Origin: Actinomycetota bacterium
Lineage (GTDB): Bacteria > Actinomycetota > Thermoleophilia > RBG-16-64-13
Assembly: GCA_018830645.1 (NCBI GenBank)
Contig: JAHJSA010000050.1
Span: forward strand, 45,676 to 109,675
Reading direction: 5' to 3'
DNA: 64,000 bases
Part shown: positions 34,339 through 58,232 of the stretch, one piece after another
Position numbering within the stretch: position 1 is the stretch's first letter
Layout of the letters: every line of letters starts with the position of its first letter
Notes under the pieces: generated by a model
Databases searched by the model: none
Told to the model about the DNA's origin: nothing
The model's input: only the letters and a program-made list of their open reading frames with translations
Position numbers and translations under genes: made by a program

Positions 34339-35304
34339 ATGACCCGTCGGATCCTTGTAGTCGAAGACGACGCAGATCTGCGAGGGATGCTGCGGAGTCT
34401 GCTTGAAGAAGACGGCTACGAGGTGACGGTGGCCGAAGACGGACTCGAGGGTCTGCGCCGGGTGGTCGACGACCCCCCCGAACTCATCATCTCCGATGTC
34501 CTCATGCCTCGCATGAGCGGACTCGAGTTCTGCGCCTTGCTGAAGGACAGCCCACAGACCCGCCATATCCCGCTCCTCTTCCTCACCTGCGTCGACGATC
34601 CGGTGAACGGCTTTGATGTGGGCGCCGACGACTACCTGGTGAAGCCGTTCCGCCAGCGTGAGTTGCTTGCTCGGCTGAGGGCCGTCTTTCGCCGCACCGA
34701 GTCGCTGCCACCGCAGATGGCCGGTCAGGGGCTGAGGGGCAATCTGAGCGAACTAGGCATAACGGAAGTCGTGCAGACCCTCCATGTCGGGAGAGCTTCA
34801 GGGTGTCTCTCCGCGGTCACCGCCGACGTATCCGGCCGGGCCCGCCTATGGCTGGAGCAAGGGGAGCTGGTGGCCGCCAAGGTCGAAGGTGCGGAGGCTC
34901 TCGACGGCGAAGAAGCCTTCTTCTTCGCAGCGCACTGGGAGGAGGGGGCTTTCGCGTTCGACTCGGCCAACCGCGCCGAGCATTGGACCGTACAGAACAC
35001 CATCGAGAGCCTGCTGCTTGAAGCCGCCCGCCGAATCGACGAGGAGGACTCCGAGGAAGCTGGACTGTCGCGTGCCGCCTCACGCTCATGTCGCATCCGG
35101 CCCGACATGCCGGGCCGTACGGAGCTCGAGGCGCGGGTAGTCGAGGTGCGGAACCGCCTGAAACTCAAGGCGTTTGAAGCGCTCATGGCGGGTCGGCCGC
35201 TGCACCAAGACGAGCCAGTTCCCTTTGTGCAGGTCGTAGACTCAGGGGTCGAACTGCCGGCGGAACTCGACGAGTTGATAGAACGAATGCTGAGCCAGGA
35301 GTGA
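34339..35304 (+). CDS. Response regulator: REC + DUF4388/PATAN-like domain
   Basis: ILVVEDD, ISDVLMP, YLVKPF, then LRGNLSELGITEVVQTL...SGCL...GEEAF...W..G.F.F...IESLLLEAARRIDE. Confidence 0.85.
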   Translation: MTRRILVVEDDADLRGMLRSLLEEDGYEVTVAEDGLEGLRRVVDDPPELIISDVLMPRMSGLEFCALLKDSPQTRHIPLLFLTCVDDPVNGFDVGADDYLVKPFRQRELLARLRAVFRRTESLPPQMAGQGLRGNLSELGITEVVQTLHVGRASGCLSAVTADVSGRARLWLEQGELVAAKVEGAEALDGEEAFFFAAHWEEGAFAFDSANRAEHWTVQNTIESLLLEAARRIDEEDSEEAGLSRAASRSCRIRPDMPGRTELEARVVEVRNRLKLKAFEALMAGRPLHQDEPVPFVQVVDSGVELPAELDELIERMLSQE

Positions 35305-39099: not shown

Positions 39100-39103
39100 T
39101 GTT

Positions 39104-39253
39104 GAGCTCGACCTTGTGCGTGATCCGCTCAAACTTGAGCCAACACATTTTCCTTGGGAGGCACGTTCTCCCGGCCGGCCCAGCTCGCCGGAGACAGTCG
39201 CCCACCTGCATACGCAGGTTCAAGGGAGATGCGGACACGGCAAGGTGGAGCAC
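39104..39253 (+). ncRNA. ssrS: 6S RNA
   Basis: Terminal helix GCTCGACCTTG..CGTG.TCCGC pairs with GCGGACACGGCAAGGTGGAGC; CTTGAGCC/GGTTCAAG helix; central bubble; CCCACCTG..CAGGTTCAA motif; located after aspS as in Firmicutes. Confidence 0.85.
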
Positions 39254-39272
39254 TTCTTTTCTCCGGAGGAAC

Positions 39273-41875: not shown

Positions 41876-42123
41876 TGGGCAGGTTCTCCTTCGGGCTCAC
41901 TGTCGCGTTGACCGCCGCGGCCGCGGCCGCGGCCGCCCTCGCCTATCGCATCTCGCGCGAGACGGGCAAGAGTCTCACCGAGGCGTTGGCCGAAGTCCCG
42001 GCTGAAGCGGAGCGATACCTCGAGGAGGTCGTCACCCGCGGCCGTGAGGCACTCGACGCGGGGCGCAGTGCGGCCGCCGAGAAGCAGGCGGAGATCGAGA
42101 GACGTCTCAACGAGCGGGCTTGA
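41872..42123 (+). CDS. YtxH-like small protein
   Basis: GRFSFG + Ala-rich anchor, ETGK, charged helix; follows DUF948-like gene. Confidence 0.55.
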   Translation: MMGRFSFGLTVALTAAAAAAAALAYRISRETGKSLTEALAEVPAEAERYLEEVVTRGREALDAGRSAAAEKQAEIERRLNERA

Positions 42124-42551
42124 AGACCGGACCCCGGGCTAGCGTCATGTCCACTGCCTCAGACACCGTTTCCCTCACCATCCCGCGTGCTCAGGAGTAC
42201 CTGCCCCTCTTCAACATGCTTCTTGGAGGCATCGCTACTCGGCGCGTTCTTTCCCTGGAAGCTCTCGACGATCTGCAGCTCGCCGTCGACAATGTGATCC
42301 TCGAGGACCGTGGCACCACGGGCGATCTCTCTCTCGCGGTGACTCTTCTGGAAGAGGCACTGGAGATAGTCATCTCCCCGCTCTCCGATCCCGACCTTCA
42401 CAGCACGTTGATCGAGGGCTCTGTGTCGACCGAGGCGGCCGATCGATGCCTGGACGTATGCCTCCTGCTGAGCCCACTCGTCGATCGATACGTCGTGCAT
42501 GATCTCGACTCGGGCACCTTCGCTCTCGAGTTGCGGAAACTGCTCCGGTAG
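42120..42551 (+). CDS. Degenerate RsbW-like anti-sigma factor
   Basis: VSLTIP...EY.....L.GIA......LDDLQLAVD and L..LVD resemble RsbW; immediately upstream of a SigB-type sigma. Confidence 0.7.
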   Translation: MKTGPRASVMSTASDTVSLTIPRAQEYLPLFNMLLGGIATRRVLSLEALDDLQLAVDNVILEDRGTTGDLSLAVTLLEEALEIVISPLSDPDLHSTLIEGSVSTEAADRCLDVCLLLSPLVDRYVVHDLDSGTFALELRKLLR

Positions 42552-42559
42552 GGGCATCC

Positions 42560-43381
42560 GTGGACATCGGCTCCGCTCACGTGAATACCGAACCGGTGCC
42601 TCTTCAGGCCCGCACGCCGAACGCCCCCGAGAAGGAGCTGCTCTGGCGCATCCATCGCGAGGCTGATGCGGTGGCGCGCGAGGAGTTGATCACGCGCTAC
42701 CTGCCGCTCGTGCGAAGTCTCGCCCGGCGATTCTCTTCGCGGGGCCAGCCGGTGGAAGACCTCATCCAGGTGGGGTCCATAGGTTTGATCAAGGCGATCG
42801 ATCGCTTCGACATCGAGCGAGGCGTGGAGCTTTCTACCTACGCGACTCCCACCATCCTCGGTGAGATCAAGCGCTACTTTCGCGACAAGGGCTGGGCGGT
42901 CAAAGTGCCGCGCGCCCTTCAGGATCTGAACATCCGCCTCAACCGGATCATCGAGCAGCTCACGGTGGAACTCAATCGTTCTCCCACCATCGCCGAACTC
43001 GCTGAGGCGTGCGACGTGTCGGAGGAGGAGGTACTCGAAGCCCTCGAAAGCGGCAGGGCCTACAACTCCCTGTCTCTGTTCTCGAGTGGATCACCCGACG
43101 ACGAGGATTCACTCGAGCTGCTCGACTACCTCGGTCGCGAGGACGACGAGTACAAGTTGGTCGAGCAGCGCAGGTACCTGGCGCCCGCGATGGGACGGCT
43201 GGATGAACGAGAGCGCCTCATCCTCCACCTGCGGTTCTTCGAGGGGATGACCCAGACCCAGATCGCAACCCGTGTGGGCATCTCCCAGATGCACGTCTCC
43301 AGACTGATCCGCAAGTCGATCGAAGTCCTGCGACAACACATGGTCGATCAGGACGGTGTCCCACCCGACCCGTCCCGCTGA
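42560..43381 (+). CDS. SigB/SigF/SigG family sigma factor
   Basis: EDLIQVGSIGLIKAIDRFD, YATPTILGEIKRYFRD, RSPTIAELA, GISQMHVSRL. Confidence 0.94.
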   Translation: MDIGSAHVNTEPVPLQARTPNAPEKELLWRIHREADAVAREELITRYLPLVRSLARRFSSRGQPVEDLIQVGSIGLIKAIDRFDIERGVELSTYATPTILGEIKRYFRDKGWAVKVPRALQDLNIRLNRIIEQLTVELNRSPTIAELAEACDVSEEEVLEALESGRAYNSLSLFSSGSPDDEDSLELLDYLGREDDEYKLVEQRRYLAPAMGRLDERERLILHLRFFEGMTQTQIATRVGISQMHVSRLIRKSIEVLRQHMVDQDGVPPDPSR

Positions 43382-47642: not shown

Positions 47643-48488
47643 TTGGAAGTGAAGGCGAGCACAGGGGTAGTCTGCATTCTTGGTCATCCGGTACGCCATT
47701 CACGATCGCCGGCGATGCACAACGCCGCCTTCGCAGAAGTAGGCCTTGACCTGGTCTACGTAGCCTTTGATGTATGCGAAACAGACCTTCCTTCCGCCAT
47801 CGACGGCCTCCGCAGCCTGGGGTTCGTAGGCGCCAATATCACGCTACCTCACAAGGAGAGTGTGGTCCCACTGCTCGACGAGACCGACGAACTCGCCACC
47901 ACGATCGGCGCCGTGAACACCATAGTGGTTGATCGAGGGCGTCTGCGCGGCTACAACACAGACGCGCAGGGCTTCCTGCGCGCGCTGGAGCGGGGGTGGG
48001 GGAGAGGGCCGGACGGCGCGCGCTGCCTCGTGCTGGGGGCCGGCGGAGCGGCGCGCGCGATCGTCGCGGCGCTCGTGCACGCACAGGCGGCTGAGGTCGT
48101 GGTGCATAATCGCACCGCGGCGCGCGCCCGCAGACTCTGCGCCGACGCGGCCACATGGTCCAGCGTTCCGGTGCGCGCGATCGAGCCCGAGGAGCTCGGC
48201 CGTGTCGCCGCGCGCGCCGATTTGATCGTAAACGCCACGTCCGTGGGCCTCGACCGTACGTTCAAGGCAATACCACTTCCTGTCGATATGGTGAAGGATA
48301 GCCACGTTGTGATGGACGTCGTGTATTCTGATTCGATGACTCCGCTGTTGGAAGCCGCCCACGGGAGGGGTGCGACAGTGATCGAAGGCACAGAGATGCT
48401 GGTGCAACAAGCTTGCCTCGCCTACGAACTGTGGACAGGGAGGATTGCTCCCGTGCATCTGTTCCGCAATAAGGCTTCCAGCGACTGA
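47643..48488 (+). CDS. aroE: Shikimate dehydrogenase
   Basis: GHPVRHSRSPAMHN, GANITLPHK, GAVNT, NTD, GAGGAARA, NATSVG. Confidence 0.96.
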   Translation: MEVKASTGVVCILGHPVRHSRSPAMHNAAFAEVGLDLVYVAFDVCETDLPSAIDGLRSLGFVGANITLPHKESVVPLLDETDELATTIGAVNTIVVDRGRLRGYNTDAQGFLRALERGWGRGPDGARCLVLGAGGAARAIVAALVHAQAAEVVVHNRTAARARRLCADAATWSSVPVRAIEPEELGRVAARADLIVNATSVGLDRTFKAIPLPVDMVKDSHVVMDVVYSDSMTPLLEAAHGRGATVIEGTEMLVQQACLAYELWTGRIAPVHLFRNKASSD

Positions 48489-50209
48489 TGCAGCTGCCGA
48501 GCGAAGAGATACCCCTGCGCAAGCCGGGGAAGAAGCGCACCGGCGAGATTCTCGTAGAGATGGGGCTACTCACACCCCAGCAGCTCGAAGAGGCGCTCGA
48601 GGAACAGAAGACCTCGCATCTGCGCATCGGCGAAGTACTTGTAGCGAAGGGGTGGATCAAGCACACCGAGCTGACCGAGGCCCTTGCCCGTCGTCTGGGT
48701 GTGCGGTATCTCGATCTCTCGACCACCAAGGTCGAGCATGCCGCGGCGAACCTGATCACCGAGAAGGACGCCAGGCGCTACGCGGCGATCCCCGTGTCGT
48801 ACCTCAACGACCACACCTTGCTGGTGGCCATGGTCGATCCGGCCAACATCTTCGCGATCGACGACCTGCGTATCCTCACCGGGTGCGACGTCGAGCCGGC
48901 TATCGCCACCGAGGAAGACATCTTCGGGCAGATCTCAAAGCTACGGAGTCTCGAGGACAAGGTCGGCGCGAACCTCGAGGAGCAAGTCGAATCGACCGAA
49001 CTCAGCCCCAACGAAGTGCGCGACATCAGGGAGCAGATCGACGAAGCTCCCATCGTCAAGTTGGTCAACAGCATCATGGCGCAGGCAGCTGAGGACGGCG
49101 CGTCCGACATCCACTTTGAGCCTCAGGCCAAAGAGATGGTCATCCGCTTCCGCAACGACGGGGTGCTTCACGAGGTCATGTCGGTGCCCCGGCGCATGCA
49201 ATCCGGAGTGCTCTCGCGCATCAAGATCATGGCCGACCTCGACATCGCCGAGCGCCGCGTGCCTCAGGACGGTCGTATCGGCCTCATGGTCGGAGGGAAG
49301 CCCATCGACATGCGGGTGGCCTCGCTGCCGACCGTGTACGGTGAGAAGATAGTGATGCGGCTTCTGGATAGGTCCAACGTCATGCTTCGTCTGCAGGACC
49401 TCGGTTTCTCGGAGAAGAGCCTTGCCCGATTCCGCAAGTCTTTCACGAAGCCGTATGGAGCGATGCTGGTAACGGGTCCGACGGGTTCGGGCAAGTCCAC
49501 AACGCTGTATGCTACGTTGAACATACTGAACACGCCGGAGAAGAACATCATCACTGTCGAGGACCCTGTGGAGTACCGATTGACCGGCATCAACCAGGTG
49601 CAGGCGAATCTGCGGGCGGGGCTGACCTTCCCTGTCGCCCTCAAGTCGATCCTGCGCTGCGACCCGGACATCGTCATGATCGGCGAGATCCGGGACAAGG
49701 AGACCGCTCAGATAGCCGTGGAGTCCGCTCTGACCGGTCACCTGGTCCTTTCGACTCTGCACACCAACGACGCTCCGGGCGCCCTGTCCCGTCTCACCGA
49801 GATGGGCATCGAGCCGTTCCTCACAGCTTCCGCCGTCGATTGCGTTCTCGCTCAGCGCCTCGCACGCAAGTTGTGTGAAGGGTGCAAGGAACCCTACAAG
49901 CCCACGCAGGAGATGCTCCGTCGGAACGACTTCCCCATGGAGGCCTGCGAAGACTGGGAGAACGTCACCCTCTACAAGCCGGTAGGATGTCCGCGCTGCA
50001 ACGGAACCGGCTACAAGGGGCGCCTCGGCATCTACGAGGTCATGCTGGTCACCGAGGCCATCGAGAGACTCACTGTCGAAAGGAAGAGCGCGGACGAGAT
50101 CAGTCGTGTCGCGCAGGCAGAGGGGATGAAGAGCCTACGGGAGGACGGTATCGAGAAAGTGCTGCAGGGCCGTACAGCGATCGAGGAGATCGCCCGTGTC
50201 ATTGTGTGA
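48488..50209 (+). CDS. pilB: Type IV pilus assembly ATPase PilB (GspE family) with MshEN domain
   Basis: ASDIHFEP, DIAERRVPQDG, GPTGSGKSTT, DPDIVMIGEIRD, LTGHLVLSTLHTN, CxxC...CxxC; N-terminal tandem MshEN repeats. Confidence 0.93.
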   Translation: MQLPSEEIPLRKPGKKRTGEILVEMGLLTPQQLEEALEEQKTSHLRIGEVLVAKGWIKHTELTEALARRLGVRYLDLSTTKVEHAAANLITEKDARRYAAIPVSYLNDHTLLVAMVDPANIFAIDDLRILTGCDVEPAIATEEDIFGQISKLRSLEDKVGANLEEQVESTELSPNEVRDIREQIDEAPIVKLVNSIMAQAAEDGASDIHFEPQAKEMVIRFRNDGVLHEVMSVPRRMQSGVLSRIKIMADLDIAERRVPQDGRIGLMVGGKPIDMRVASLPTVYGEKIVMRLLDRSNVMLRLQDLGFSEKSLARFRKSFTKPYGAMLVTGPTGSGKSTTLYATLNILNTPEKNIITVEDPVEYRLTGINQVQANLRAGLTFPVALKSILRCDPDIVMIGEIRDKETAQIAVESALTGHLVLSTLHTNDAPGALSRLTEMGIEPFLTASAVDCVLAQRLARKLCEGCKEPYKPTQEMLRRNDFPMEACEDWENVTLYKPVGCPRCNGTGYKGRLGIYEVMLVTEAIERLTVERKSADEISRVAQAEGMKSLREDGIEKVLQGRTAIEEIARVIV

Positions 50210-50280
50210 GCAGACGAGCCTCGGGGTCCCAGGGCAAGGCCTGCTCTTGATCTACCTGGCCCAGCGTCATGGAGGTGACC

Positions 50281-51345
50281 GTGGAACTCGTTGAGATCCT
50301 GAAGGAGGTGCTCGAGAGGGGAGCCTCCGACCTCCACATCTCAGTGGGGGTGCCACCGACTCTTAGGGTCAGCGGCAAGCTCGTGCATCTCGATGCCCCG
50401 AGGGTCACCACGAATGACGCGCGTTCCCTCATTTACAGCATCCTTACGCAGGATCAGCGCCAAAAACTCGAGAACGACTGGGAGCTTGACTTCTCGTACT
50501 CCGTGCCCGGCCGAGCCCGGTTCCGGGTCAACGCGTATTTCCAGCGCAACAGCCTCGGAGCCGCTTTCCGTCTCATCCCGGTGGACATCAAGTCCATCGA
50601 CGAGCTGGGGTTGCCGCCGATTCTGCACGAACTAGCGCGCAAGCCACGCGGTTTCGTACTCGTCACTGGGCCCACGGGCTCGGGCAAGTCCACGACCCTG
50701 GCAGCCATGATTGACGCGATCAACAAGGAGCGTGACGATCACATCATGACCATCGAGGATCCGATCGAGTTCCTTCACCGCCACCAGAACTGCATCGTGA
50801 ACCAACGAGAGGTGGGAACCGACACGAAGTCCTTCGCCAAGGCCCTGAAGTCTGTGCTCCGGCAAGACCCCGACATCATCCTTGTGGGGGAGCTCCGCGA
50901 TCTCGAGACGATCACGACCGCTCTGACCGCCGCGGAGACGGGGCATCTGGTCTTCGCGACACTTCACACTCAAGACGCGCCTCAGACCATCGATCGCCTC
51001 ATAGACGTGTTCCCGCCGCATCAGCAAGAACAGATACGTGTGCAGATCGCTGCGACCATCCAGGGCATCGTCACGCAGCAATTGCTTGAGCGGCGCGACG
51101 GCAAGGGCCGGATCGCCGCCTGCGAGGTCTTGATCCCGACGCCTGCGGTTCGGAACCTCATCAGGGAGGGGAAGACGCATCAGATCTACACCACCATGCA
51201 GACGGGCACCAAGCACGGCATGCAGACCATGGACTCCACCTTGGCCGACCTTGTGAGGCGAGGCCTGATCACGAAGGAACTGGCTGATCGTCGATCGTCG
51301 AATCCGGAAGACCTCAAACGACTCCTCGTATCTGGGGCGGCGTGA
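50281..51345 (+). CDS. pilT: Type IV pilus retraction ATPase PilT
   Basis: ASDLH, GPTGSGKSTT, TIEDPIE, AAETGHLV, AVRNLIRE, GMQT; GGAGGT before GTG 50281. Confidence 0.95.
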   Translation: MELVEILKEVLERGASDLHISVGVPPTLRVSGKLVHLDAPRVTTNDARSLIYSILTQDQRQKLENDWELDFSYSVPGRARFRVNAYFQRNSLGAAFRLIPVDIKSIDELGLPPILHELARKPRGFVLVTGPTGSGKSTTLAAMIDAINKERDDHIMTIEDPIEFLHRHQNCIVNQREVGTDTKSFAKALKSVLRQDPDIILVGELRDLETITTALTAAETGHLVFATLHTQDAPQTIDRLIDVFPPHQQEQIRVQIAATIQGIVTQQLLERRDGKGRIAACEVLIPTPAVRNLIREGKTHQIYTTMQTGTKHGMQTMDSTLADLVRRGLITKELADRRSSNPEDLKRLLVSGAA

Positions 51346-51398
51346 CGCTCGGGCCACAGGGCGTTCGCGGGTAGCGCTGCAGGAAAGGAAGAGCCACC

Positions 51399-52613
51399 AT
51401 GACCACCTTCACATACACGGCTAAGCCATCGGGCGGCAGCCTGATGGACGGCGAGATACAGGGGGATTCGAAAGCCGCGGTGGCCGCCGAGCTCAGGCGG
51501 CGCGGCCTAACCGTGATGTCCCTCGAGGAGAAGAAGGGCCTACCCAACATCGGCGAGCTGCTCGAGGGCATGAGCAGTATCAAGCTCCGCGACAAGGTCA
51601 TCTTCTCTCGACAGTTCGCCACCATGATCAACGCGGGTCTTGCGCTGCTCCGGGCGCTTTTTATCCTGGAAGAGCAGACGGAGAACCCGCGCCTCCAGAA
51701 GATCATCAAGGCCGTCCGCCAGGATGTCGAGGCGGGTATGCCCCTCTCGGACTCCTTCGAGAAGCACCCGATCGCGTTCGACAGACTCTACGTCAGTATG
51801 GTCCGGGCCGGCGAAGTCGGAGGGGTACTCGACCTGACCCTCGAACGCCTAGCGACCCAACTCGAGAAAGACGACAGCCTCCGAAGATCGGTCAAGTCGG
51901 CCATGACGTACCCGATCCTCATCTTCGTCTTCGCGATCGTCGTGCTGTTCGCGCTCATCCTCTTCGTGATACCTGTGTTCGCCGGCATGTACGACGGATT
52001 GGGCGGTCAATTGCCGCTTCTCACCCGGATCATGGTGGGAGCAAGTGACTTTATGCGCTCGTTCTGGTTTGTCGTGTTCCCAGCCGCCTTCCTGCTCTTC
52101 TACGGGCTCAAGCGGCTCAAGAACACCAAGACGGGCACCGAGACCTGGGACAAGATCAAGCTGCGCCTGCCCATGAAGCTGGGCCCGATCGTGCAGAAGA
52201 TCGCCGTTTCCCGCTTCAGCCGGACGCTGGCGACGCTGGTGAGTTCCGGTGTGCCGATCCTGCAGGCCATCGACATCACGGGAAAGACCTCGGGCAACAC
52301 GGTCATAGAGTACGCGATGGAAGCGGTCAGAGAGAACATCAAGAGCGGAGATTCGATCTCACGCCCTCTCGAGAAGATAAAGGTGTTTCCACCGATGGTC
52401 ACCCAGATGATCGCCATCGGGGAGGAGACGGGTGCTCTCGACACCATGCTCCACAAGATCGCCGACTTCTACGAGGATGAGGTCGATTCCGCGGTCAAGT
52501 CACTCACGTCGATCATCGAGCCGATCATGATGATCTTCATCGGTGGCATCGTGGGCCTCGTCGTCGTCTCCATGTACCTGCCGATCTTCAACCTGTTCCA
52601 GTTGGTGGAGTAG
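51399..52613 (+). CDS. pilC: Type IV pilus platform protein PilC (GspF family)
   Basis: FSRQFATMINAG, AGEVGG.L, AMTYP, GEETGALD.ML, IEP. Confidence 0.94.
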   Translation: MTTFTYTAKPSGGSLMDGEIQGDSKAAVAAELRRRGLTVMSLEEKKGLPNIGELLEGMSSIKLRDKVIFSRQFATMINAGLALLRALFILEEQTENPRLQKIIKAVRQDVEAGMPLSDSFEKHPIAFDRLYVSMVRAGEVGGVLDLTLERLATQLEKDDSLRRSVKSAMTYPILIFVFAIVVLFALILFVIPVFAGMYDGLGGQLPLLTRIMVGASDFMRSFWFVVFPAAFLLFYGLKRLKNTKTGTETWDKIKLRLPMKLGPIVQKIAVSRFSRTLATLVSSGVPILQAIDITGKTSGNTVIEYAMEAVRENIKSGDSISRPLEKIKVFPPMVTQMIAIGEETGALDTMLHKIADFYEDEVDSAVKSLTSIIEPIMMIFIGGIVGLVVVSMYLPIFNLFQLVE

Positions 52614-52653
52614 GCGCGAGCTATCCGACGCCGAAGGCGCACGGGCCGACTGG

Positions 52654-53508
52654 ATGTACATGTCTGGAGCTTCCAACGTGGAAGACGACATACGGGCAGC
52701 AGCCGCTTCTCTCGGGGTATCGGATGGGAGAGCCGGTGCGCAGCCCACCGGCAACCTGCCGCGAACGTTCCCGGCCAACGAAGCCCTGCTGGCCGCGTAC
52801 CGGCGCGGAGATTTGGGCGCGCTCGATCGACTTCTCGAGAAGAACGAACCGTTGTTGCATCATGCTCTGAAGAGGTTCTCGTATTCCTCAGAGCCTTACG
52901 AGGACCTGTTCCAGGTCGCGCGCCTCGGCTTCATGAAAGCGGTCCACAGGTACGACGAGACCCGAGGCACCGCTTTCTCCACGTACGCTATCGCCATCGC
53001 CGACGGCGAGATCCGCCATCATCTTCGAGACGCCCTGTTGGTACGTCAACCGCGCTGGGCGCGAGGTCTCTACGCGCACATCGTCGAGGCGCAGACGGAG
53101 TTCTTCCGGGAGCACGGCCGCTCACCGACAATCGCGGAGGTGGCAGCCCTCGTCAACATCCAGGAGAAGGGCGTTCTGGAGATCATCAGAGCGCAGGCGA
53201 ACCTCAACGTGCATTCCCTGGACGAGCCCTTCGACGAGCCCGATGGTGGCCGAGCGCCCGACAGGACCTTGGTCCGATCCATCCGCGCCGAATCGTTCTC
53301 GCTGCCCATCGAGGACCGTATCCTGTTGTACGAAGCCCTGGGCGTACTCTCCGACCTCCAGAAGAAGATTATATACCTGCTGTTCTTCCGTGATCTGACG
53401 CAGCAAGAGGTCGCAGACGAGATCGGCCTCACCCAGCGCGCCGTATCACGCGAAAACGTGAAGGCCATGGACCGGCTGAAGGCGATCCTGAGCAAACGCG
53501 TCTTCTGA
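52654..53508 (+). CDS. Divergent SigB/SigF-like sigma-70 factor
   Basis: YEDLFQVARLGFMKAVHRYD, FSTYA, GEIRHHLRD, GRSPTIAEVA, LTQQEVADEIGLTQRAVSR; start uncertain. Confidence 0.88.
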   Translation: MYMSGASNVEDDIRAAAASLGVSDGRAGAQPTGNLPRTFPANEALLAAYRRGDLGALDRLLEKNEPLLHHALKRFSYSSEPYEDLFQVARLGFMKAVHRYDETRGTAFSTYAIAIADGEIRHHLRDALLVRQPRWARGLYAHIVEAQTEFFREHGRSPTIAEVAALVNIQEKGVLEIIRAQANLNVHSLDEPFDEPDGGRAPDRTLVRSIRAESFSLPIEDRILLYEALGVLSDLQKKIIYLLFFRDLTQQEVADEIGLTQRAVSRENVKAMDRLKAILSKRVF

Positions 53509-53573
53509 CACCGCCTCGGCAGTCCTGGGCGACGATCCCTCGCAGGATTCCCCTACGTCCCAGCCGCTCTTCC

Positions 53574-53601
53574 ACGCACGATAATGTATGTTATGTAAAG
53601 A
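53574..53601 (+). other. dif site (XerC/D chromosome dimer resolution)
   Basis: ACGCACGATAA-TGTATG-TTATGTAAAGA fits the 11-6-11 dif layout; intergenic, AT-rich, at the + to - gene orientation switch. Confidence 0.88.
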
Positions 53602-53625
53602 AGCCACCGTAAAGCGGCCTTCACG

Positions 53626-54138
53626 TCAGTACCGGATCAGACTGAAGACGTCGTAGCCCTCGAGGCGGTCACGCCCCTTCAGGAACTCCAACTCGATGAC
53701 AAAAGCCAGGCCGACCACTATGCCGCCTGACTTCTCCACCAGCTCGATCTTCGCTCTCGCGGTTCCTCCTGTGGCAAGAAGGTCATCGTGGATGATGACG
53801 CGCTGGCCGGGCGCTATCGCGTCCACATGCATTTCGAGGCAGTCTACGCCGTACTCCAGGTCGTAGTCGGCGCGGGCCACGTCCCAGGGCAGCTTTCCCG
53901 GCTTTCGCGCCGCCGCGAAGCCAGCCCCCACCGCGTAGGCAAGTGCCGCGCCGAGGATGAACCCTCTGGCCTCCGCACCCAAGATCACATCAGGGGTCCG
54001 CTCCTTGCTGAAATCAGCGAGTCGCTCCACCGTATAGCGAAGCGCCTCAGCGTCTTGAAGGAGCGGCATTATGTCCTTGAAGATGATGCCCGCTTTCGGG
54101 AAATCGGGCACGTCTCGGATGAAGGTGCTTAAATCCAT
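53626..54138 (-). CDS. apt: Adenine phosphoribosyltransferase
   Basis: DFPKAGIIFKDI, EARGF, RKPGKLP, LEYG, DDLLATGGT. Confidence 0.97.
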   Translation of the reverse strand: MDLSTFIRDVPDFPKAGIIFKDIMPLLQDAEALRYTVERLADFSKERTPDVILGAEARGFILGAALAYAVGAGFAAARKPGKLPWDVARADYDLEYGVDCLEMHVDAIAPGQRVIIHDDLLATGGTARAKIELVEKSGGIVVGLAFVIELEFLKGRDRLEGYDVFSLIRY

Positions 54139-54164
54139 GGGGCTCCTCGGGTCATCTTGGGAGG

Positions 54165-54917
54165 TCAGCCGGCAAGCCGCGAGAGTTCTCGGTACAGGAG
54201 CAGGTCGAGCAGACGAGCCATGAGCGAGCCGAGATCGGCCAGCGCCCGCGTCCCTTCCTCTCTCCTGTCCTTGTTCGCCGATCTCATCGCCGGCGCCACC
54301 ACTTGTGCCAGCAACGCGGCCTCACGTTCCGCCGACGAACTGAGGACACGCAGATTGCGAGGCTCGACCCCATGGCGGCTCAAGAGGTCGCAGATGCGCA
54401 CCACCTCCAGGTCTGGTTCCGAGAGGCGCGTTTCGGTCATCGGCGTGGCTGCATCGAAGAGATGGAACTCGGCAAGAGCACGAAGAAACGACTCCGAAAC
54501 TCCGGTGATGCTCAACGCCTGGTCCCACGTGTACGCGGGTACTCCTCGCTTGAGGCCGCGAGGCGTGTCGAAGGGTCCGGAGGGTGCCAAGGGTCGGCCG
54601 ACCGCTGAAGCGGTGCCACGCTCGAGGCGCTCTTTGATCACATCGAGGGGCAAGAACTCGTCCCGCTGAAGAGTCAGGATAGTGCGCAGCGTTCGGACAG
54701 CCGCCTGGCCGTACTTTCGGTAGCCCCCCGGAGTGCGCTCCGGCGACACGAGGCCTCGATCCTCCAGATAACGGATCTTGCTGATGGTCAGGTCGGGGAA
54801 CTCCCCGCGGAGGCGTGCCACCACTCCGCCGATCGCCAAGAGGGTCTCGGCCTGTCCCTCGAGAGCCCCCGCAGTCTCTCCGCCGGCCGTATCCTGACGC
54901 TGCGGGCGATCAGTCAT
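54165..54917 (-). CDS. MerR family regulator (actinobacterial Rv1828/FtsR-like)
   Basis: IG.V...L..EFPDLTISKIRYLE..GLV.PERTPGGYRKY, LQRDEFLPL, GVEPRNLR, AEREA. Confidence 0.88.
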   Translation of the reverse strand: MTDRPQRQDTAGGETAGALEGQAETLLAIGGVVARLRGEFPDLTISKIRYLEDRGLVSPERTPGGYRKYGQAAVRTLRTILTLQRDEFLPLDVIKERLERGTASAVGRPLAPSGPFDTPRGLKRGVPAYTWDQALSITGVSESFLRALAEFHLFDAATPMTETRLSEPDLEVVRICDLLSRHGVEPRNLRVLSSSAEREAALLAQVVAPAMRSANKDRREEGTRALADLGSLMARLLDLLLYRELSRLAG

Positions 54918-55384
54918 CAGTCGATCGGTTCCAGAAACGCCAGTTTGAACTTACCGATCTGCAGTTCATCGCCGTCGGCGAGGTGCTGGCGCTCGACTCT
55001 GCCCCGGTTGACATAGGTGCCGTTCAGGCTGTTCAGATCTTCGACCGCGTACCCGGTAGCATCGCGCACGACGCGGGCGTGATGACGAGAAACAGTGACA
55101 TCGTCGAGGAACAGGTGGCTCTCCGGGTTGCGGCCGATGGTCAGGAGGTCGCTATCGAGGGGGATCTGCTCTCCCTCGCTACCCCCGCCCGCTCTGATCA
55201 GAAGAACAGGGTAGCGGCTCACCCCTCCGGAGACATCTGGGCCGGCTCCTGCCTCATCCCCATCGAGGGGCGCATACGTGACGGTGGTCTCGGCGAGGTC
55301 GGCGATGACCAAGCGGCTGCCACAACGACTACAGAAGTTGGCGTCTCCGCTGTTCTCGAAGGAGCACTTGGCGCACGAGGTCAT
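54917..55384 (-). CDS. Zinc-ribbon + FHA domain protein (GarA/OdhI-like)
   Basis: CAKC...FCSRCG, ETT motif, IGR, FLDDVTVSRHHA, SLNGTYVN, QIGKFKL. Confidence 0.9.
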   Translation of the reverse strand: MTSCAKCSFENSGDANFCSRCGSRLVIADLAETTVTYAPLDGDEAGAGPDVSGGVSRYPVLLIRAGGGSEGEQIPLDSDLLTIGRNPESHLFLDDVTVSRHHARVVRDATGYAVEDLNSLNGTYVNRGRVERQHLADGDELQIGKFKLAFLEPID

Positions 55385-55671
55385 GCCTCGTCCTCTTCTG
55401 TGTGGGCGAGCTGCCTCTGGTAGTGGGTGAATTCGGCCGCCATCTGATCCTCGATGCCTCGCAGTACTTCCGGGCTCTCCAGGATATGCGCGCGGTCCTC
55501 AGCATCTGTGTTGTTGATAATGTATGGGTCGGCCATCACCTGATCGAACCTCCGACCCTTGCTCAGTTCCGTCACGATGTACCGGAGGATCCTCTCCTCG
55601 CGCACACCGACGGAGAGTTCGTGGAAGAGCCTCTCCATACCCCTTACGACTCGGTCGATCCTATCCCCCAT
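55381..55671 (-). CDS. Hypothetical protein, 96 aa
   Basis: GGAGGT RBS, overlaps the FHA gene start, helical composition. Confidence 0.75.
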   Translation of the reverse strand: MGDRIDRVVRGMERLFHELSVGVREERILRYIVTELSKGRRFDQVMADPYIINNTDAEDRAHILESPEVLRGIEDQMAAEFTHYQRQLAHTEEDEA

Positions 55672-55686
55672 GGGACCACCTCCGCC

Positions 55687-55965
55687 TCAGAGCTCTTCTT
55701 CGGCCAACCCGCGGGAGCTGAGGATGCTGCTGAGCTTCTCGACGTCGCCCTCGACGAAGAGACTCTTGCCGCTCGAATGCTTGTCTCTCAGCCGACGAAC
55801 CATCTCTGCGCGAAGGATGTCGAGCTTCGCGTGGATGATCCGGCGGGTCTTGGAGACCTCTCGCTCCTCTGCCGCCAGTTGCTCGGCGAGTACCTTGATC
55901 TCGTCATCGCCCTTCGACTGTATGTCGATGAGCAGTTCGAACGATGAGGTGTCGTAGTCGTTCAT
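55687..55965 (-). CDS. rsiG: Single-motif RsiG-family c-di-GMP-binding anti-sigma factor
   Basis: E-REV-S-KT-R-RII-H-AKL-D fits E(x3)S(x2)R(x3)[Q/H](x3)D, followed by ILRAE.V.RLR. Confidence 0.82.
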   Translation of the reverse strand: MNDYDTSSFELLIDIQSKGDDEIKVLAEQLAAEEREVSKTRRIIHAKLDILRAEMVRRLRDKHSSGKSLFVEGDVEKLSSILSSRGLAEEEL

Positions 55966-55972
55966 GGCTTCT

Positions 55973-56001
55973 AGTATACCCCCGTGGCTACGAACCATCA
56001 A
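55973..56001 (-). promoter_or_regulatory. Sigma-A-type promoter, probably giving a leaderless rsiG mRNA
   Basis: TTGATG-N17-TATACT ending 7 nt before ATG 55965; no SD. Confidence 0.65.
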
Positions 56002-56041
56002 CCTTGACTAGAGGTTGGCGACCACCGCCTCCCCCAAGATC

Positions 56042-56068
56042 AAGGGCAGGCACCACGCGCCTGCCCTT
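56042..56068 (-). terminator. Hairpin downstream of gcvH
   Basis: AAGGGCAGGC...GCCTGCCCTT 10-bp inverted repeat. Confidence 0.6.
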
Positions 56069-56109
56069 CGTGCTACATGGTCTGTCCTACCGTACGGACG
56101 GCTGCAGGT

Positions 56110-56496
56110 TCACTCGTCCTGCTCTGCGAGGATCTGCTCGTATTCCTCGGCCGACATGAGTTCCTCGAGTTCGCTCGGGTCGCTCAGCTTGATCTTGATG
56201 AGCCAACCGTCTTCGTAGGGGCTCTCGTTGATCAACTCGGGAGCATCCACGACTTCCTCGTTAGTCTCGACGATCGTGCCGCTCAGCGGAGCGTAGACAT
56301 CGGTCACCGCCTTCACCGATTCGATCTCGGCATACGTAGTACCGGCGGCGACTTCCGTGCCTACCTCGGGAAGCTCGATGTAGACGATGTCGCCGAGGGC
56401 CTCCTGGGCGTAATCGGTCACACCGAGTACAGCGATGTCACCCTCGATACGGGCCCAATCATGCTCCTTGTGGTACTTGAGGTTCTTGGGGTTCAC
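56110..56496 (-). CDS. gcvH: Glycine cleavage system H protein
   Basis: KYHKEHDW, GVTDYAQEALGD, IESVKA (lipoyl-Lys), NESPY..GW. Confidence 0.96.
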   Translation of the reverse strand: MNPKNLKYHKEHDWARIEGDIAVLGVTDYAQEALGDIVYIELPEVGTEVAAGTTYAEIESVKAVTDVYAPLSGTIVETNEEVVDAPELINESPYEDGWLIKIKLSDPSELEELMSAEEYEQILAEQDE

Positions 56497-56577
56497 TAGC
56501 GCTCCTTTCTCGCCAAGCGTGGCTGGCCACATGATAGCACAGGCTTCCCGGCCTCCCGCCCATCGAACCGGCGCTAC

Positions 56578-56913
56578 TCAACTCGCCTGCGGCGCGTCGC
56601 TCAGACTCTCTAGAAGCAGGCTGTCGAGAGTCCGATCTATGGTCACTGGAGACGTGATGGCAGTGAACTCGACGCTCTCGAAGGCGAAGTGACCTTCCTT
56701 GAGTGCGATGAGACCCCAGAAGGCCTCAAGGGCGGATTCAGCCCCTACCTGCTCGGCGTGGATGACTCGTCCCCGAGCTATGACGATCATGCCCTCGATA
56801 TCGGTGTGATCGACTGAGCAGCGGAGCTCTACTTCTCCCGTCCTCTTCCCATGCACGAGCACCTGCAGGATCTCAGGAAGAGCGAAGTCCCTCAGGTCGC
56901 CGACAAAAGCCAT
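56578..56913 (-). CDS. Stand-alone DUF4388/PATAN-like protein
   Basis: GDLRDFALPEILQ....KRTG.V...G.V.HA....EG.F.F...LDSLLLE; AGGAGG RBS. Confidence 0.82.
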   Translation of the reverse strand: MAFVGDLRDFALPEILQVLVHGKRTGEVELRCSVDHTDIEGMIVIARGRVIHAEQVGAESALEAFWGLIALKEGHFAFESVEFTAITSPVTIDRTLDSLLLESLSDAPQAS

Positions 56914-57060
56914 CGCCCTCCTATGCCTCGTCATCCAACGTCGGTCGCGGGGGATTCTACCAACGCGGACCCGCATAGCAAAGGCTACAGGGCCTTGTTA
57001 TACTTCTGCCCGTGCTTCCAGCCGCAACCTAGCGGCCCACATGTGCACAAGGAGGTGCTC

Positions 57061-57555
57061 TTGGTTCGCCGCAGGGGGCTGGTAATCAACGATCGGCAGA
57101 TGCAGCTCGTGGATGACATCCTCGATAAGCTGCGCCAGGTTTCGGGGTCGCGCTTCATCGCCCTGGTCTCCACGAGCGGCCAACCCATCACGACATCGTC
57201 AGTGGAAGCTCACCCTGACACCCTGTCCCTCGCCTCCTTGGCCGCCAGTTCGTTCGCTGCGACTCAGCAGCTCGCAGAGGTGCTGCACGAGCGGGAGTTC
57301 ACCCTGCTGTTCCACGAAGGCCGCGAGAGCAATTTGCACGTGGCGCAGGTCACGGACCAAGTCTTGCTTGTGATCACGTTCGGACGTGAGACCCAGGTGG
57401 GCAAGGTGCGGCTCTACACGAACCGAGCGGTAGAGGTACTCCGCCCTGTGTTCGATTCGAACGATGGCGACGACCAGACCAACCTCATGATAGACGACGA
57501 CTACTCGCTGCTCGCGGACGAGGCCATAGACGACCTCTTCGCGGACATGGAGTGA
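57061..57555 (+). CDS. mglB: MglB roadblock/LC7 protein (GAP for MglA)
   Basis: DTLSLASLAASSFAATQQLA..L.E.EF..LFHEG....LH, G.VRL; AAGGAGGT before TTG 57061; upstream of mglA. Confidence 0.9.
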   Translation: MVRRRGLVINDRQMQLVDDILDKLRQVSGSRFIALVSTSGQPITTSSVEAHPDTLSLASLAASSFAATQQLAEVLHEREFTLLFHEGRESNLHVAQVTDQVLLVITFGRETQVGKVRLYTNRAVEVLRPVFDSNDGDDQTNLMIDDDYSLLADEAIDDLFADME

Positions 57556-57559
57556 CCTC

Positions 57560-58147
57560 GTGCCTCTGATCAACTTCGCCGCACGCGAGATCAACTACAA
57601 GATCGTCTACTATGGGTGCGGTCTATGCGGCAAGACCACGAACATCCAGTACATCCACAAGAAGGTGAACCCGAACGCCCGCGGCAAGCTGGTCAGTATC
57701 GCGACCGAGGAGGAGCGCACCCTCTACTTCGACTTCCTCCCACTTACCCTGGGAACAGTCAAGGGCATGAAGACTCGCTTCCACCTCTATACCGTCCCGG
57801 GCCAGTCGTACTACAACGCGTCCCGCCGACTCGTGTTGCAGGGAGTCGATGGCATCGTGATGGTCGCCGACAGCCAGATCACTCGCCTGGACGAGAACGT
57901 CGAGAGCTATCTGAACCTCTGGGATAACCTCCTCGACCAAGGCGACGACTTGACCCGCCTAAGTTTCGTGATCCAACTGAACAAGCGCGATCTCACGGAC
58001 ATCTTCTCGGCCGAGGATCTCAAGGAGCTCCTGAACCACACGAACTCGCCCGTGACGGAAGCGTGCGCGCTCACCGGCCAAGGAGTCTTCGAGACCCTCA
58101 AGACCGTGTGCAAGCAGGTCATCGCCAAGACCGGTCAGGCCTCCTAG
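57560..58147 (+). CDS. mglA: MglA small Ras-like GTPase
   Basis: INFAAREINYKIVYYG.GLCGKTTN, ERTLYFDF, YTVPGQ, GVDG, NKRD, G.GVFETLK. Confidence 0.94.
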   Translation: MPLINFAAREINYKIVYYGCGLCGKTTNIQYIHKKVNPNARGKLVSIATEEERTLYFDFLPLTLGTVKGMKTRFHLYTVPGQSYYNASRRLVLQGVDGIVMVADSQITRLDENVESYLNLWDNLLDQGDDLTRLSFVIQLNKRDLTDIFSAEDLKELLNHTNSPVTEACALTGQGVFETLKTVCKQVIAKTGQAS

Positions 58148-58232
58148 ACGATCACCTCTCGGTGCCTGCGGAGGTCGTGGCGGTACCCTCTCCGGTACCC
58201 TCTCCGCGGACCCGTATGCACCCTTCGGGCGC

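Follow-up and report, generated by a model that had tools for sequence, protein, structure and literature searches.

Three gene sets, probably inherited separately, at the chromosome terminus of an uncultured Thermoleophilia bacterium

Genes of the stretch and the dif site

The window (the whole stretch of DNA analysed, 64,000 nucleotides) comes from an uncultured Thermoleophilia bacterium, a groundwater actinobacterium, and the locus is at the chromosome terminus. An earlier note had proposed that a c-di-GMP, MglAB and type IV pilus circuit is clustered here. All the genes that it named, including a REC-DUF4388 regulator at 34.3 kb, were located by Pfam and NCBIfam profile searches at or near where it had placed them. 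The genes between dif and the PATAN gene that were absent from its list are apt, ftsR, u96 and gcvH. The actinobacterial lineage it proposed is supported as well, as the best 80 MglA loci are all from MAG records titled Thermoleophilia, Gaiellales, Actinomycetes/Actinomycetota or 'actinobacterium'.

The first set of genes is on the forward strand. The stop codon of aroE (shikimate dehydrogenase, 47643..48488, Pfam Shikimate_dh_N 104.9 bits) overlaps the start of pilB, and the pilBTC transcription unit therefore probably begins with aroE. The aroE-pilB order is kept in the loci of relatives. PilB, the extension ATPase of the type IV pilus (48488..50209), has matches to T2SSE (473.4 bits) and to TIGR02538 (656.3, slightly below the cut-off of 675.65). 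The MshEN domain claimed for it (66 bits) is indeed present, at the N-terminus, with two motifs of 24 residues (R17-Q40 and R46-R69) in tandem, separated by a 5-residue spacer. In this arrangement, and in scoring above the cut-offs of both PF05157 and NF053729 (c-di-GMP motif, 66.5 bits against 38), it resembles the MshEN ATPases, such as Vibrio cholerae MshE and MshEN-bearing PilB, and PilB probably binds c-di-GMP through this module. The motif consensus, which Wang et al. reportedly gave in 2016, has Leu at the second residue and Gln at the last. In comparison, motif 1 of this PilB has Thr at the second residue and motif 2 has Arg at the last. Further downstream are pilT (retraction ATPase, 50269..51345, TIGR01420 508.5, cut-off 319.1), pilC (platform protein, 51399..52613, T2SSF in two stretches, 240.4 bits; 436 bits with the PilC models, below the cut-off of 700) and a gene for an alternative sigma factor of the SigB/F/G type (52654..53508, Sigma70 regions 2, 3 and 4 in Pfam).

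Together, aroE-pilB-pilT-pilC and the SigF-like sigma gene encode the motor of a type IV pilus that lacks a secretin. Flagellin, FlhA and secretin were searched for in the genome, which is 99.8% complete, and none was found. The pilin and pilMNO genes, on whose presence elsewhere in the genome the proposal depended, are there, with pilins at C43:17130-26898 and pilD-pilMNO on contig C45.

The Xer recombination site dif (53577..53600, no strand assigned) follows the sigma gene. It is unique within the 3.87-Mb genome, allowing up to 5 substitutions, and lies 3 kb from the maximum of the contig's cumulative GC skew. A positional orthologue, adjoining apt-ftsR, was found in 92 of the 117 related loci scanned, from several families; the arms are conserved and the 6-bp centre varies. 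By its sequence, uniqueness, orthologues and GC skew, the dif-like site is real, beyond chance, as had been claimed.

The second set is on the reverse strand. It consists of apt (adenine phosphoribosyltransferase, 53626..54138, NF002633 239.1, cut-off 224), ftsR (MerR-type cell-division regulator, 54165..54917, NF050798 197, cut-off 150), a gene for a zinc-ribbon and FHA protein in the position of GarA/OdhI (54917..55384, FHA 69.4 bits), u96 (55381..55671, 96 residues, no named family), rsiG (55687..56001, PF22802 48.8, cut-off 27), predicted to encode an anti-sigma factor for WhiG that depends on c-di-GMP and has a single motif, and gcvH (glycine cleavage H protein, 56110..56532, GCV_H 164.2 bits). 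The u96 protein has no match in Pfam or NCBIfam, and in the atlas its only neighbours are actinobacterial clusters without a name. In other Actinobacteria odhI/garA is directly upstream of ftsR (PMC6683498), and the set is this ancient garA-ftsR cluster, holding rsiG too in Thermoleophilia, with apt alongside. As in Corynebacterium and Mycobacterium, the FHA gene is directly upstream of ftsR, and FtsR scores above the equivalog cut-off. There are differences, however. The FHA protein carries a zinc ribbon at its N-terminus, and its OdhI model score of 106.8 is below the cut-off of 200; its gene is preceded by rsiG and u96; and ftsR is followed by apt, rather than by the nuclease and second MerR genes described in PMC6683498.

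The third set comprises a group-1 MglA GTPase, its GTPase-activating protein and a putative PATAN adaptor. The stand-alone PATAN (DUF4388) gene (56578..56913, reverse strand, PF14332 53.4, cut-off 25) is divergent from mglB. Its reading frame is open to 56976, and the start at 56913 is favoured by the alignment of relatives and by a sigma-A-type promoter-like site at 56981-56954. The protein is a bare domain of 111 residues without a receiver, while the versions in sister families have a C-terminal extension of about 90 residues. The mglB gene (57061..57555, forward strand) encodes a Roadblock/LC7 GTPase-activating protein (Robl_LC7 42.9 bits; 79.1 with the MglB model, below the cut-off of 200), and its TTG start behind AGGAGG, read from the sequence, agrees with that of relatives. 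The mglA gene (57560..58147, forward strand) encodes a group-1 Ras-like polarity GTPase (E 7e-73 to Myxococcus xanthus MglA, 1.5e-65 to Thermus thermophilus MglA). The REC-PATAN response regulator (34339..35304, forward strand, Response_reg 86.7 and DUF4388 61.2 bits) is directly behind relA/spoT. By PF14332 matches the genome has six PATAN genes, this one included.

Conservation of the gene order and the role of MglAB

The gene order is conserved across the family of the window, and the pilus and c-di-GMP are the common theme of the three sets. Of 27 loci from relatives, 20 contain pilC together with mglA, and each of these 20 is from this family; the five loci from two other families have no pilC near mglA. 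Among the best 80 MglA loci, sampled across species, pilC is present in 10. In comparison, rsiG and mglB are both visible in 76 of these 80, and they are divergent neighbours in every case, at distances of 183-1136 bp. Between pgsA and rsiG, the PATAN-mglBA trio is inserted in three families only, where MglA is present in 32/35, 34/35 and 22/24 genomes; it was found in 0/105 genomes of nine others. On the other hand, rsiG adjoins fha-ftsR at every Thermoleophilia locus examined that covers rsiG, with or without mglBA, including 10/10 genomes that lack mglA. Given that rsiG stays with fha-ftsR without mglA, and that only one of the three families with MglA has pilBTC close to mglBA, most of the proximity is housekeeping synteny that was inherited, to which an insertion was added, as allowed for by the caveat of the earlier note that it could be coincidental. 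On balance, we favour the view that the 9.7-kb stretch is not one regulatory unit, and that three sets of genes, differing in age and separately inherited, lie next to each other in it. The systems are of known kinds in a new lineage, and the cluster is partly coincidental.

The window MglA can be aligned over its full length with the Myxococcus and Thermus proteins (6hjh, 5ymx, 3t12), and mglB is directly upstream of mglA as in those organisms. The studied MglA/MglB proteins come from hosts with an outer membrane, whereas no secretin gene was detected in this genome. The arginine next to the G2 threonine (R53-T54) and the TVPGQ G3 motif, invariant or almost so in 13 sequences, are those of group 1 as given in the available part of the 2014 survey (PMC4316618). 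The many phyla listed for group 1 in that part exclude Actinobacteria, to which this host belongs. A PATAN gene near some group 1 and 5 loci is also described there. In the relatives of the window this neighbour is nearly constant, as a PF14332 gene accounts for 55 of the 69 ORFs in the gap beside mglBA, which supports the grouping of DUF4388 with mglBA in the earlier note.

By homology with Myxococcus and Thermus, and by co-occurrence, MglAB-PATAN would most likely decide which pole bears active pili. The connection to the pilus motor may be made by PATAN, as in cyanobacteria: PATAN-REC regulators bind the motor in Synechocystis, according to the accessible text of bioRxiv 10.1101/2021.06.11.447907. 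The PATAN domain is shared with those regulators. The REC-PATAN gene of the window has both of their domains, while the gene beside mglBA encodes the PATAN domain without a receiver, and its link to the motor is predicted.

The sets could instead be adjacent for historical reasons only. MglAB-PATAN would then be unrelated to pili, and its role would be in cell division, the segregation of chromosomes or some other process at the poles, linked with dif and the ftsR-FHA operon. Next to rsiG-fha-ftsR in 76/76 loci showing both, mglBA is linked more constantly to these genes than to those of the pilus, so it could serve cell division or another polar process, and the position of dif beside apt-ftsR in several families also fits this. 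Moreover, PilT is above cut-off in 8 of the 13 genomes without MglA in a sample of 41, and in one family (f4) all three sampled genomes have PilT and none has MglA. MglAB is therefore not needed for pili in Thermoleophilia, and the co-occurrence of MglA with PilT is confounded by descent. However, MglA was found only with PilT (28/28 MglA-bearing genomes). The searches for other motility genes, limited to flagellin, FlhA and secretin, point away from this explanation as well, and so does the binding of Synechocystis PATAN-REC regulators to the pilus motor. Furthermore, 48 of 66 loci from the sister families have, ahead of mglB, a sigma-28-like site resembling that of pilA, against 0 of 78 in the reverse-complement control, for a pattern chosen post hoc, after the alignment had been viewed. 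The group-1 MglA proteins studied to date act on pili or gliding, as far as the available part of PMC4316618 covers them. Overall, a purely historical adjacency is unlikely, and selection of the piliated pole by MglAB-PATAN is the preferred reading.

RsiG, WhiG and the pilin leader

RsiG is related to the RsiGs of known structure (E 2.4e-6 to 6pfj and 2e-4 to 7lq4), and is of the single-motif type, as had been noted. About 100 residues long, with the His-type motif E-x3-S-x2-R-x3-H-x3-D conserved in relatives, it resembles the RsiG that forms the (RsiG)2-(c-di-GMP)2-WhiG complex in Rubrobacter radiotolerans and that of Conexibacter woesei, where the His motif binds c-di-GMP (PMC8325347, in the part available). 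The true WhiG is encoded on another contig (C89:29479-30156, TIGR02479 271, cut-off 189.6; E 8e-81 to Streptomyces venezuelae WhiG). Both rsiG and WhiG are present in 36 of 41 genomes and both absent in 2. From the motif, this co-occurrence and the published Conexibacter and Rubrobacter proteins, the RsiG homodimer is predicted to bind c-di-GMP and then sequester WhiG from C89. The neighbouring sigma, the other candidate for its partner, is not WhiG.

The clearest c-di-GMP control of the pilus appears to be at the major pilin gene, 72 kb upstream of the stretch on the same contig and outside the 48488..58147 region. Its leader has a WhiG-type promoter, a c-di-GMP-I riboswitch (C43:22140-22214, RF01051 54.7, cut-off 35) and an intrinsic terminator. 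The promoter, CT[C/A]AAG-N14-TGCCGATA, is found in 7/7 aligned pilA leaders from four genera, with a variable spacer. Of the relatives' pilA loci, 7 of 12 have the aptamer, as do 3 of 5 loci from other families. Part of the 5' arm of the terminator, with the adjoining loop bases, forms a 10-nt complement to the aptamer core, and high c-di-GMP is therefore predicted to lower pilin transcription twice: RsiG would remove WhiG, and the riboswitch would terminate the transcript. This OFF switch is predicted from two folds of almost equal energy, -69.5 kcal/mol for the forced terminator and -68.2 for the forced alternative.

With the GGC-variant model the riboswitch scores 57.9, slightly above its RF01051 score but below the variant cut-off of 59. 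The aptamer has A where the variant consensus has G, at what we take to be the variant-defining position. We know of no established ligand for the GGC variant. The pilA1 leader of Clostridioides difficile likewise has a c-di-GMP aptamer followed by an intrinsic terminator. That riboswitch, however, is of class II and an ON switch, whereas the one here is of class I, behind a WhiG-type promoter, and predicted to be OFF.

Of the proposed c-di-GMP control over both transcription and assembly of the pilus, the PilB motif is supported, and the transcriptional part is predicted to act at the distant pilin leader; no WhiG-type promoter was found in any intergenic region of 47.5-58.2 kb. A genome-wide scan with the WhiG consensus showed no enrichment (132 matches, compared to 253 in a mononucleotide shuffle), and weight is therefore placed only on conserved sites. 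Candidate WhiG-type sites precede an HD-domain gene, which has a GGDEF gene behind it, and other surface-protein genes. The genome has 16 GGDEF genes. The WhiG-type pilin promoter and the candidate sites are features shared with the Rubrobacter and Conexibacter systems, to which the riboswitch behind the promoter is an addition. The operon of rsiG with u96, the GarA-like FHA gene and ftsR is a further difference, as neither such a context nor the terms 'synten' and 'gcvH' occur in the part of PMC8325347 at hand.

It is rather improbable that RsiG acts mainly in this operon, with u96 and the zinc-ribbon FHA protein, and couples c-di-GMP to the control of division through FtsR instead of to WhiG and pili. 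The genes from rsiG to ftsR run in one direction and either overlap by 1-4 nt or are 15 nt apart, and rsiG keeps to fha-ftsR without mglA. In addition, u96 is fused with rsiG as one ORF in one relative (L032) and with the FHA gene in another (L035), single cases in draft assemblies in which sequencing errors are possible. The fusions hint at a possible second role for RsiG within the operon that encodes it, and the two roles are compatible. However, the co-occurrence of WhiG and the conserved pilA promoter favour sequestration of WhiG as the predicted function of RsiG.

The pil-linked sigma factor

The sigma encoded behind pilC was considered as WhiG and ruled out, with FliA_WhiG 81.5 (cut-off 189.6), SigBFG 177.4 (cut-off 234) and sigma-F as the closest solved relative (1l0o_C, E 2.5e-27). 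The single combined circuit of the earlier note, if read as RsiG with c-di-GMP holding this sigma, transcription of the pilus genes by it and selection of the pole by MglAB and PATAN, is given little credence. In its favour are the 2.2 kb between the rsiG and sigma genes and the pilus linkage of the latter (see below). However, rsiG is present in 38/41 genomes, including family members without the sigma gene, and tracks WhiG instead, which the RsiGs in the accessible part of PMC8325347 bind, and the promoter conserved at pilA belongs to the WhiG/sigma-28 class.

In the relatives the sigma gene comes after pilC in 13 of 27 loci. It has the same position in all four pilBTC loci of two sister families; in the fourth (G036) pilA and the aptamer were not found in the stretch. 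In the other three (G031, G026 and G029) the sigma gene is located between pilC and the riboswitch-pilA unit, and it therefore encodes a genuine pilus-linked sigma factor.

Gene organization and the terminus

The gene map between 47.6 and 58.2 kb of the window was drawn from the ORF listing and from family scans. These place every gene, and therefore all the items named in the earlier note exist. On the forward strand, aroE (47643–48488) is followed by pilB (48488–50209), pilT (50269–51345), pilC (51399–52613) and a gene for a sigma factor (52654–53508), and then by a dif-like site (53577–53600, no strand assigned). The reverse strand carries apt (53626–54138), ftsR (54165–54917), a gene for a Zn-ribbon–FHA protein (54917–55384), a 96-residue ORF of unknown kind (u96, 55381–55671), rsiG (55687–56001), gcvH (56110–56532) and a gene for a stand-alone PATAN (DUF4388) domain (56578–56913). 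The forward strand resumes with mglB (57061–57555) and mglA (57560–58147), and a VanW-family gene is next after mglA. A second PATAN gene, fused to a REC domain, is located at 34339–35304, behind relA/spoT.

The contig of the window (C43) is 142 kb long and belongs to a draft genome of 3.87 Mb with 99.8% completeness. The stretch is found nearly whole in metagenome runs from three studies, two of them labelled groundwater (a possible source run being left out). Two structured RNAs are also present in the window, an FMN riboswitch upstream of riboflavin genes (2186–2303, 111.5 bits) and a 6S RNA located 3′ of aspS (39103–39255, 65.5 bits).

The dif-like site consists of two arms flanking a 6-bp center, and we take it to resemble E. 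coli dif. With up to five substitutions allowed, the genome has no other match. A positional ortholog adjoining apt is found in 92 of 117 related loci, with conserved arms and a variable center. The cumulative GC skew of the contig has its maximum at C43:96,000, compared to the site at C43:99,252, and the mean skew is +0.028 to the left of the peak and −0.066 to the right. A single copy, conserved arms around a 6-bp center and a switch of GC skew are thus all observed, and the dif-like site marks the terminus. As a caution, a tight and conserved gene cluster close to dif can reflect inherited housekeeping synteny.

Conservation of the neighborhood and the rsiG–ftsR operon

The surroundings of mglA were compared in 27 relatives. 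Within the family of the window, all 20 loci that reach far enough have the order alaS-ruvX-mltG-aroE-pilBTC ... apt-ftsR-fha-u96-rsiG-gcvH, divergent from mglBA. Five loci from two other families retain only apt-ftsR-fha-(u96)-rsiG, again divergent from mglBA. A scan with the MglA alignment, taking one genome per species, gave 161 confirmed loci. Among the best 80 of these, 76 show both rsiG and mglB, which are divergent neighbors in every case, and pilC is found in 10. The same best 80 come only from MAG records titled Thermoleophilia, Gaiellales, Actinomycetes/Actinomycetota or 'actinobacterium'. When 201 genomes were sampled evenly over the class, only three families had MglA (32/35, 34/35 and 22/24 genomes), and none of 105 genomes from nine other families had it. 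In ten Thermoleophilia genomes that lack mglA, rsiG adjoins fha-ftsR in all ten, with pgsA on the other flank in eight.

The simplest reading of these gene orders is that rsiG-fha-ftsR would be the old unit. The PATAN-mglBA group, together with vanW and a sugar-nucleotide gene, would then sit, in one clade, between pgsA and rsiG, and pilBTC would lie across dif from that unit by happenstance in one family.

The genes for RsiG, u96, the FHA protein and FtsR overlap or nearly abut. RsiG is the only PF22802 match in the genome (48.8 bits, cut-off 27), and solved RsiG structures match it weakly. A single-motif RsiG is defined by one occurrence of E-x3-S-x2-R-x3-(Q/H)-x3-D, and the translation carries E-x3-S-x2-R-x3-H-x3-D once. 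This c-di-GMP motif is conserved across the 27 listed relatives' sequences, with His replaced by Gln in three. In the available text of PMC8325347, the His form is that of Conexibacter woesei RsiG, whose Kd for c-di-GMP is 25 µM, and c-di-GMP-dependent binding of WhiG is demonstrated only for the Conexibacter and Rubrobacter proteins. The MerR-type gene is ftsR by the equivalog model (NF050798, 197 vs 150). The Zn-ribbon–FHA protein scores below the OdhI/GarA cut-off (NF041660, 106.8 vs 200), and is GarA/OdhI-like in having an FHA domain and a place directly upstream of ftsR. The available text of PMC6683498 describes odhI/garA as 'always' directly upstream of ftsR in Actinobacteria.

In one relative (G008), rsiG and u96 form one ORF of 208 residues (L032:5788–6414), and in another (G014), u96 and the Zn-ribbon–FHA gene form one of 279 residues (L035:6065–6904). 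These are possibly gene fusions or assembly errors; if they are real fusions, they suggest that the three products may act together. A search of the Atlas with u96 gives only unnamed actinobacterial clusters, with no named relatives. Its AlphaFold2 model, built from 19 sequences, is predicted with low confidence to be all-helical (mean pLDDT 66.9).

Sigma factors and probable c-di-GMP input to the pilus

The earlier note proposed a combined c-di-GMP, MglAB and pilus circuit. The attractive pairing of RsiG with the adjacent sigma factor is very probably wrong and is corrected here. The sigma factor beside pilC scores 177.4 with the SigBFG model and 81.5 bits with the FliA/WhiG model (TIGR02479, cut-off 189.6), both under the cut-off, and its best solved relative is sigma-F. 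It was rejected as WhiG, with SigBFG outscoring FliA/WhiG and sigma-F the closest solved protein. The true WhiG is encoded on another contig (C89:29479–30156), with a TIGR02479 score of 271 bits against the same cut-off and an E value of 8e-81 to Streptomyces venezuelae WhiG. Its neighbors are translation genes and an ORF that resembles, by eye, a tyrosine recombinase. Of 41 genomes, 38 contain RsiG and 37 contain WhiG; 36 have both and two have neither. As a whole, the combined circuit is only partly supported: its parts are all present, but the pairing of RsiG with the adjacent sigma factor and a WhiG promoter within the cluster are not supported.

The pil-linked sigma factor is nevertheless not an accident. 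Its gene stands behind pilC in 13 of 27 loci of the family. In two sister families, four loci (L162, L163, L164 and L166) have the order pilB-pilT-pilC-sigma, followed by a riboswitch and pilA in three of the four loci fetched. Since the pilC-sigma order is kept in the sister families, the SigF-like factor is a conserved pilus-linked gene. A second, canonical SigB/F-type sigma factor (298.8 bits, over the cut-off) is encoded in the window, with a short RsbW-like gene directly upstream (42120–43381 together) and alaS next.

The analysis indicates the most plausible points of action of c-di-GMP on the pilus in this organism, whose genome contains 16 GGDEF genes. PilB has an MshEN domain above both cut-offs (PF05157, 66 vs 23.1; NF053729, 66.5 vs 38), with tandem 24-residue motifs separated by a 5-residue spacer and two deviations from the consensus. 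Six pilin-like genes are located at C43:17130–26898, and pilD-pilMNO adjoins aroC-aroK-aroB on contig C45. Flagellin, FlhA and secretin were not found in the genome.

WhiG-type promoters were sought with the pattern TAAA-N14-17-GCCGATAA, allowing up to two mismatches, after the flagellar/WhiG consensus in the available text of PMC8325347. The whole genome has 132 matches, compared to 253 in a mononucleotide shuffle, and therefore the raw count is no evidence and only conserved or functionally coherent sites were retained. No WhiG promoter is found in the intergenic regions of 47.5–58.2 kb, where the best candidates have 4–6 mismatches out of 12.

A conserved site was observed at the leader of pilA, the major pilin gene (C43:21990–22310), about 23.4 kb upstream of the first base of the window. 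This leader has, in order, a WhiG/sigma-28-type promoter, a c-di-GMP-I riboswitch and an intrinsic terminator. The aptamer (C43:22140–22214, outside the window) scores 54.7 bits with RF01051 (gathering score 35). Seven pilA leaders, drawn from four genera, were aligned. In them, the −35 element CT[C/A]AAG and the −10 element TGCCGATA are constant, the spacer varies, and the aptamer comes next. A second conserved element, TTGTCT-N17-ATACT, separates the promoter from the aptamer. Six of the seven leaders have a stem with a U-tract 3′ of the aptamer. The terminator was read by eye and in the alignment; a simple terminator scan missed it because the loop exceeds the limit of the scan. Ten nucleotides that span the end of the 5′ arm of the terminator stem and the first part of the loop next to it are perfectly complementary to the aptamer core. 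Forced folds give −69.5 kcal/mol for the terminator and −68.2 kcal/mol for the alternative. From these folds, the riboswitch is predicted, with modest confidence, to be an OFF switch.

With the model of the GGC variant, the pilA aptamer scores 57.9, below the cut-off of 59 though above its RF01051 score, and it has an A where the consensus of the variant has a G. That this position defines the variant, and how it is numbered, are presumed here. The available papers that name the c-di-GMP-I-GGC variant state nothing about its ligand.

A second c-di-GMP-I aptamer (C11:110480–110558, minus strand, 67.8 bits) has a WhiG-type site upstream (region C11:110480–110630) and precedes the gene for a secreted, 601-residue protein with GHL15 and Ig domains. 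The other WhiG-type sites are candidate matches to the consensus rather than demonstrated promoters. One, with a single mismatch, precedes the gene for a 100-residue protein that is a borderline match to the anti-sigma-28 factor FlgM (C92:16095–16474; 24.8 bits vs 25). Two others, with two mismatches each, precede multihaem cytochrome genes (C47:30802–33695 and C66:22143–23142). Further candidates are found before genes for a sugar transferase, a CAP/CWB2 protein, a MASE3 kinase and an HD-domain protein, the last of these genes preceding a GGDEF gene.

In one groundwater RNA library, which may contain DNA, contigs match only aroE, pilB and pilT, with no mismatches, and give a weak hint that pilB and pilT are expressed. 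The region 52651–58200 is uncovered in this library; contigs cannot establish absence, and the library thus gives no indication either way on the expression of rsiG or mglBA.

MglA, MglB and the PATAN protein

MglA can be aligned end to end with the solved Myxococcus xanthus and Thermus thermophilus proteins. Arg53 and Thr54 are invariant among 13 sequences and line up with the M. xanthus residues, so that the intrinsic arginine beside the conserved G2 threonine, as expected for group 1, is present. The G3 motif is TVPGQ rather than DxxGQ or GTPGQ, with Thr78, Pro80, Gly81 and Gln82 invariant and Val79 nearly so in the same 13 sequences. TVPGQ is the group-1 G3 motif in the available text of Wuichet and Sogaard-Andersen 2014 (PMC4316618).

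The Roadblock/LC7 gene mglB stops 4 nucleotides upstream of mglA, and the mglBA pair is present in 27 of 27 loci. MglB scores above the cut-off for the Roadblock domain (PF03259, 42.9 vs 23) and below that of the Thermus-type equivalog (NF052242, 79.1 bits vs 200). Its probable function is thus supported by the Roadblock domain and by position, not by equivalog membership. The stand-alone PATAN protein scores 53.4 with PF14332 (cut-off 25), and the REC fusion scores 61.2. Pfam identifies the ORF in the gap between rsiG and mglB as PATAN in 55 of 69 cases, and three of the 14 misses gave a PATAN match with tblastn. A complex prediction with MglA, two copies of MglB, GTP and PATAN as the scored partner gave a score of 0.00, which weighs neither for nor against binding.

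We consider it fairly probable that MglAB acts in pilus polarity here. In the 41-genome sample, PilT is above the cut-off in all 28 genomes that have MglA, but also in eight of the 13 without it, and the co-occurrence is weak evidence because the sampled genomes are related. In the available text of PMC4316618, the group-1 MglA proteins studied so far work in pili or gliding, and that of a preprint reports PATAN regulators that bind the pilus motor in a cyanobacterium. On the other hand, there are families with PilT but without MglA, and the linkage that is constant for mglBA is to ftsR and dif.

Promoters of mglB were compared using a relaxed pattern, written post hoc from the alignment, with the reverse complement as control (0 of 78 loci). 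Of 66 loci from the gcvH-less sister families, 48 have a sigma-28-like site before mglBA, and a WhiG link to mglBA is plausible in those families. The same pattern finds no site in the window or in 12 loci of its family type, and therefore a WhiG link is not supported here. Instead, the conserved element before mglB in this family is a sigma-A-type TGnTATACT, present in all 12 loci and in the window.

A broader scheme can be imagined for secretin-less, Gram-positive-type actinobacteria. In it, c-di-GMP would gate pilus-driven movement at the release of WhiG by RsiG, at the pilin riboswitch, at the MshEN domain of PilB and, in the sister families, at the transcription of mglBA. The SigF-like factor behind pilC would act as a sigma factor dedicated to the pilus and would also answer to RsiG or the PATAN-MglA module, in a polarity-and-assembly circuit built unlike that of Myxococcus. 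We regard this scheme as quite unlikely.

Studies of polarity control by MglA and MglB have dealt with Myxococcus, Thermus and Bdellovibrio, which have an outer membrane. The present lineage, a large and uncultured actinobacterial one with secretin-less pili, has a group-1 MglA whose PATAN neighbor is near-constant. This occurrence in Thermoleophilia widens the range of the MglAB system and makes PATAN a testable candidate adaptor.

Each of the components is of a known kind, among them group-1 MglA/MglB, MshEN in PilB and c-di-GMP riboswitches at pilin genes. The available text of PMC4316618 notes PATAN next to mglBA as occasional, and that of PMC8325347 covers the single-motif RsiG of Thermoleophilia and the control of Rubrobacter pili by WhiG. 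Relative to the cited literature, the group-1 MglA in Actinobacteria, its near-constant PATAN partner, rsiG within the garA-ftsR operon and the tandem of promoter and riboswitch are new. Among the titles and opening abstract lines returned for riboswitch, WhiG and c-di-GMP and for Thermoleophilia type IV pili, none suggests a WhiG promoter with a riboswitch behind it. A term search of a 2026 WhiG preprint gave zero occurrences of riboswitch, MglA, FtsR and Thermoleophilia.

Two other forms of PATAN protein were observed. In the gcvH-less families (alignment A2, for example L062:2246–2851), the protein beside mglB has about 200 residues and is extended at the C terminus by a conserved segment ending in PQPELER, and one member of this long group has a weak HTH_20 match. 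Elsewhere in the genome of the window (C76:51617–54018, minus strand), the stop of a gene for a 613-residue membrane GGDEF protein overlaps the start of a gene for a 186-residue PATAN protein, forming a diguanylate cyclase–PATAN pair.
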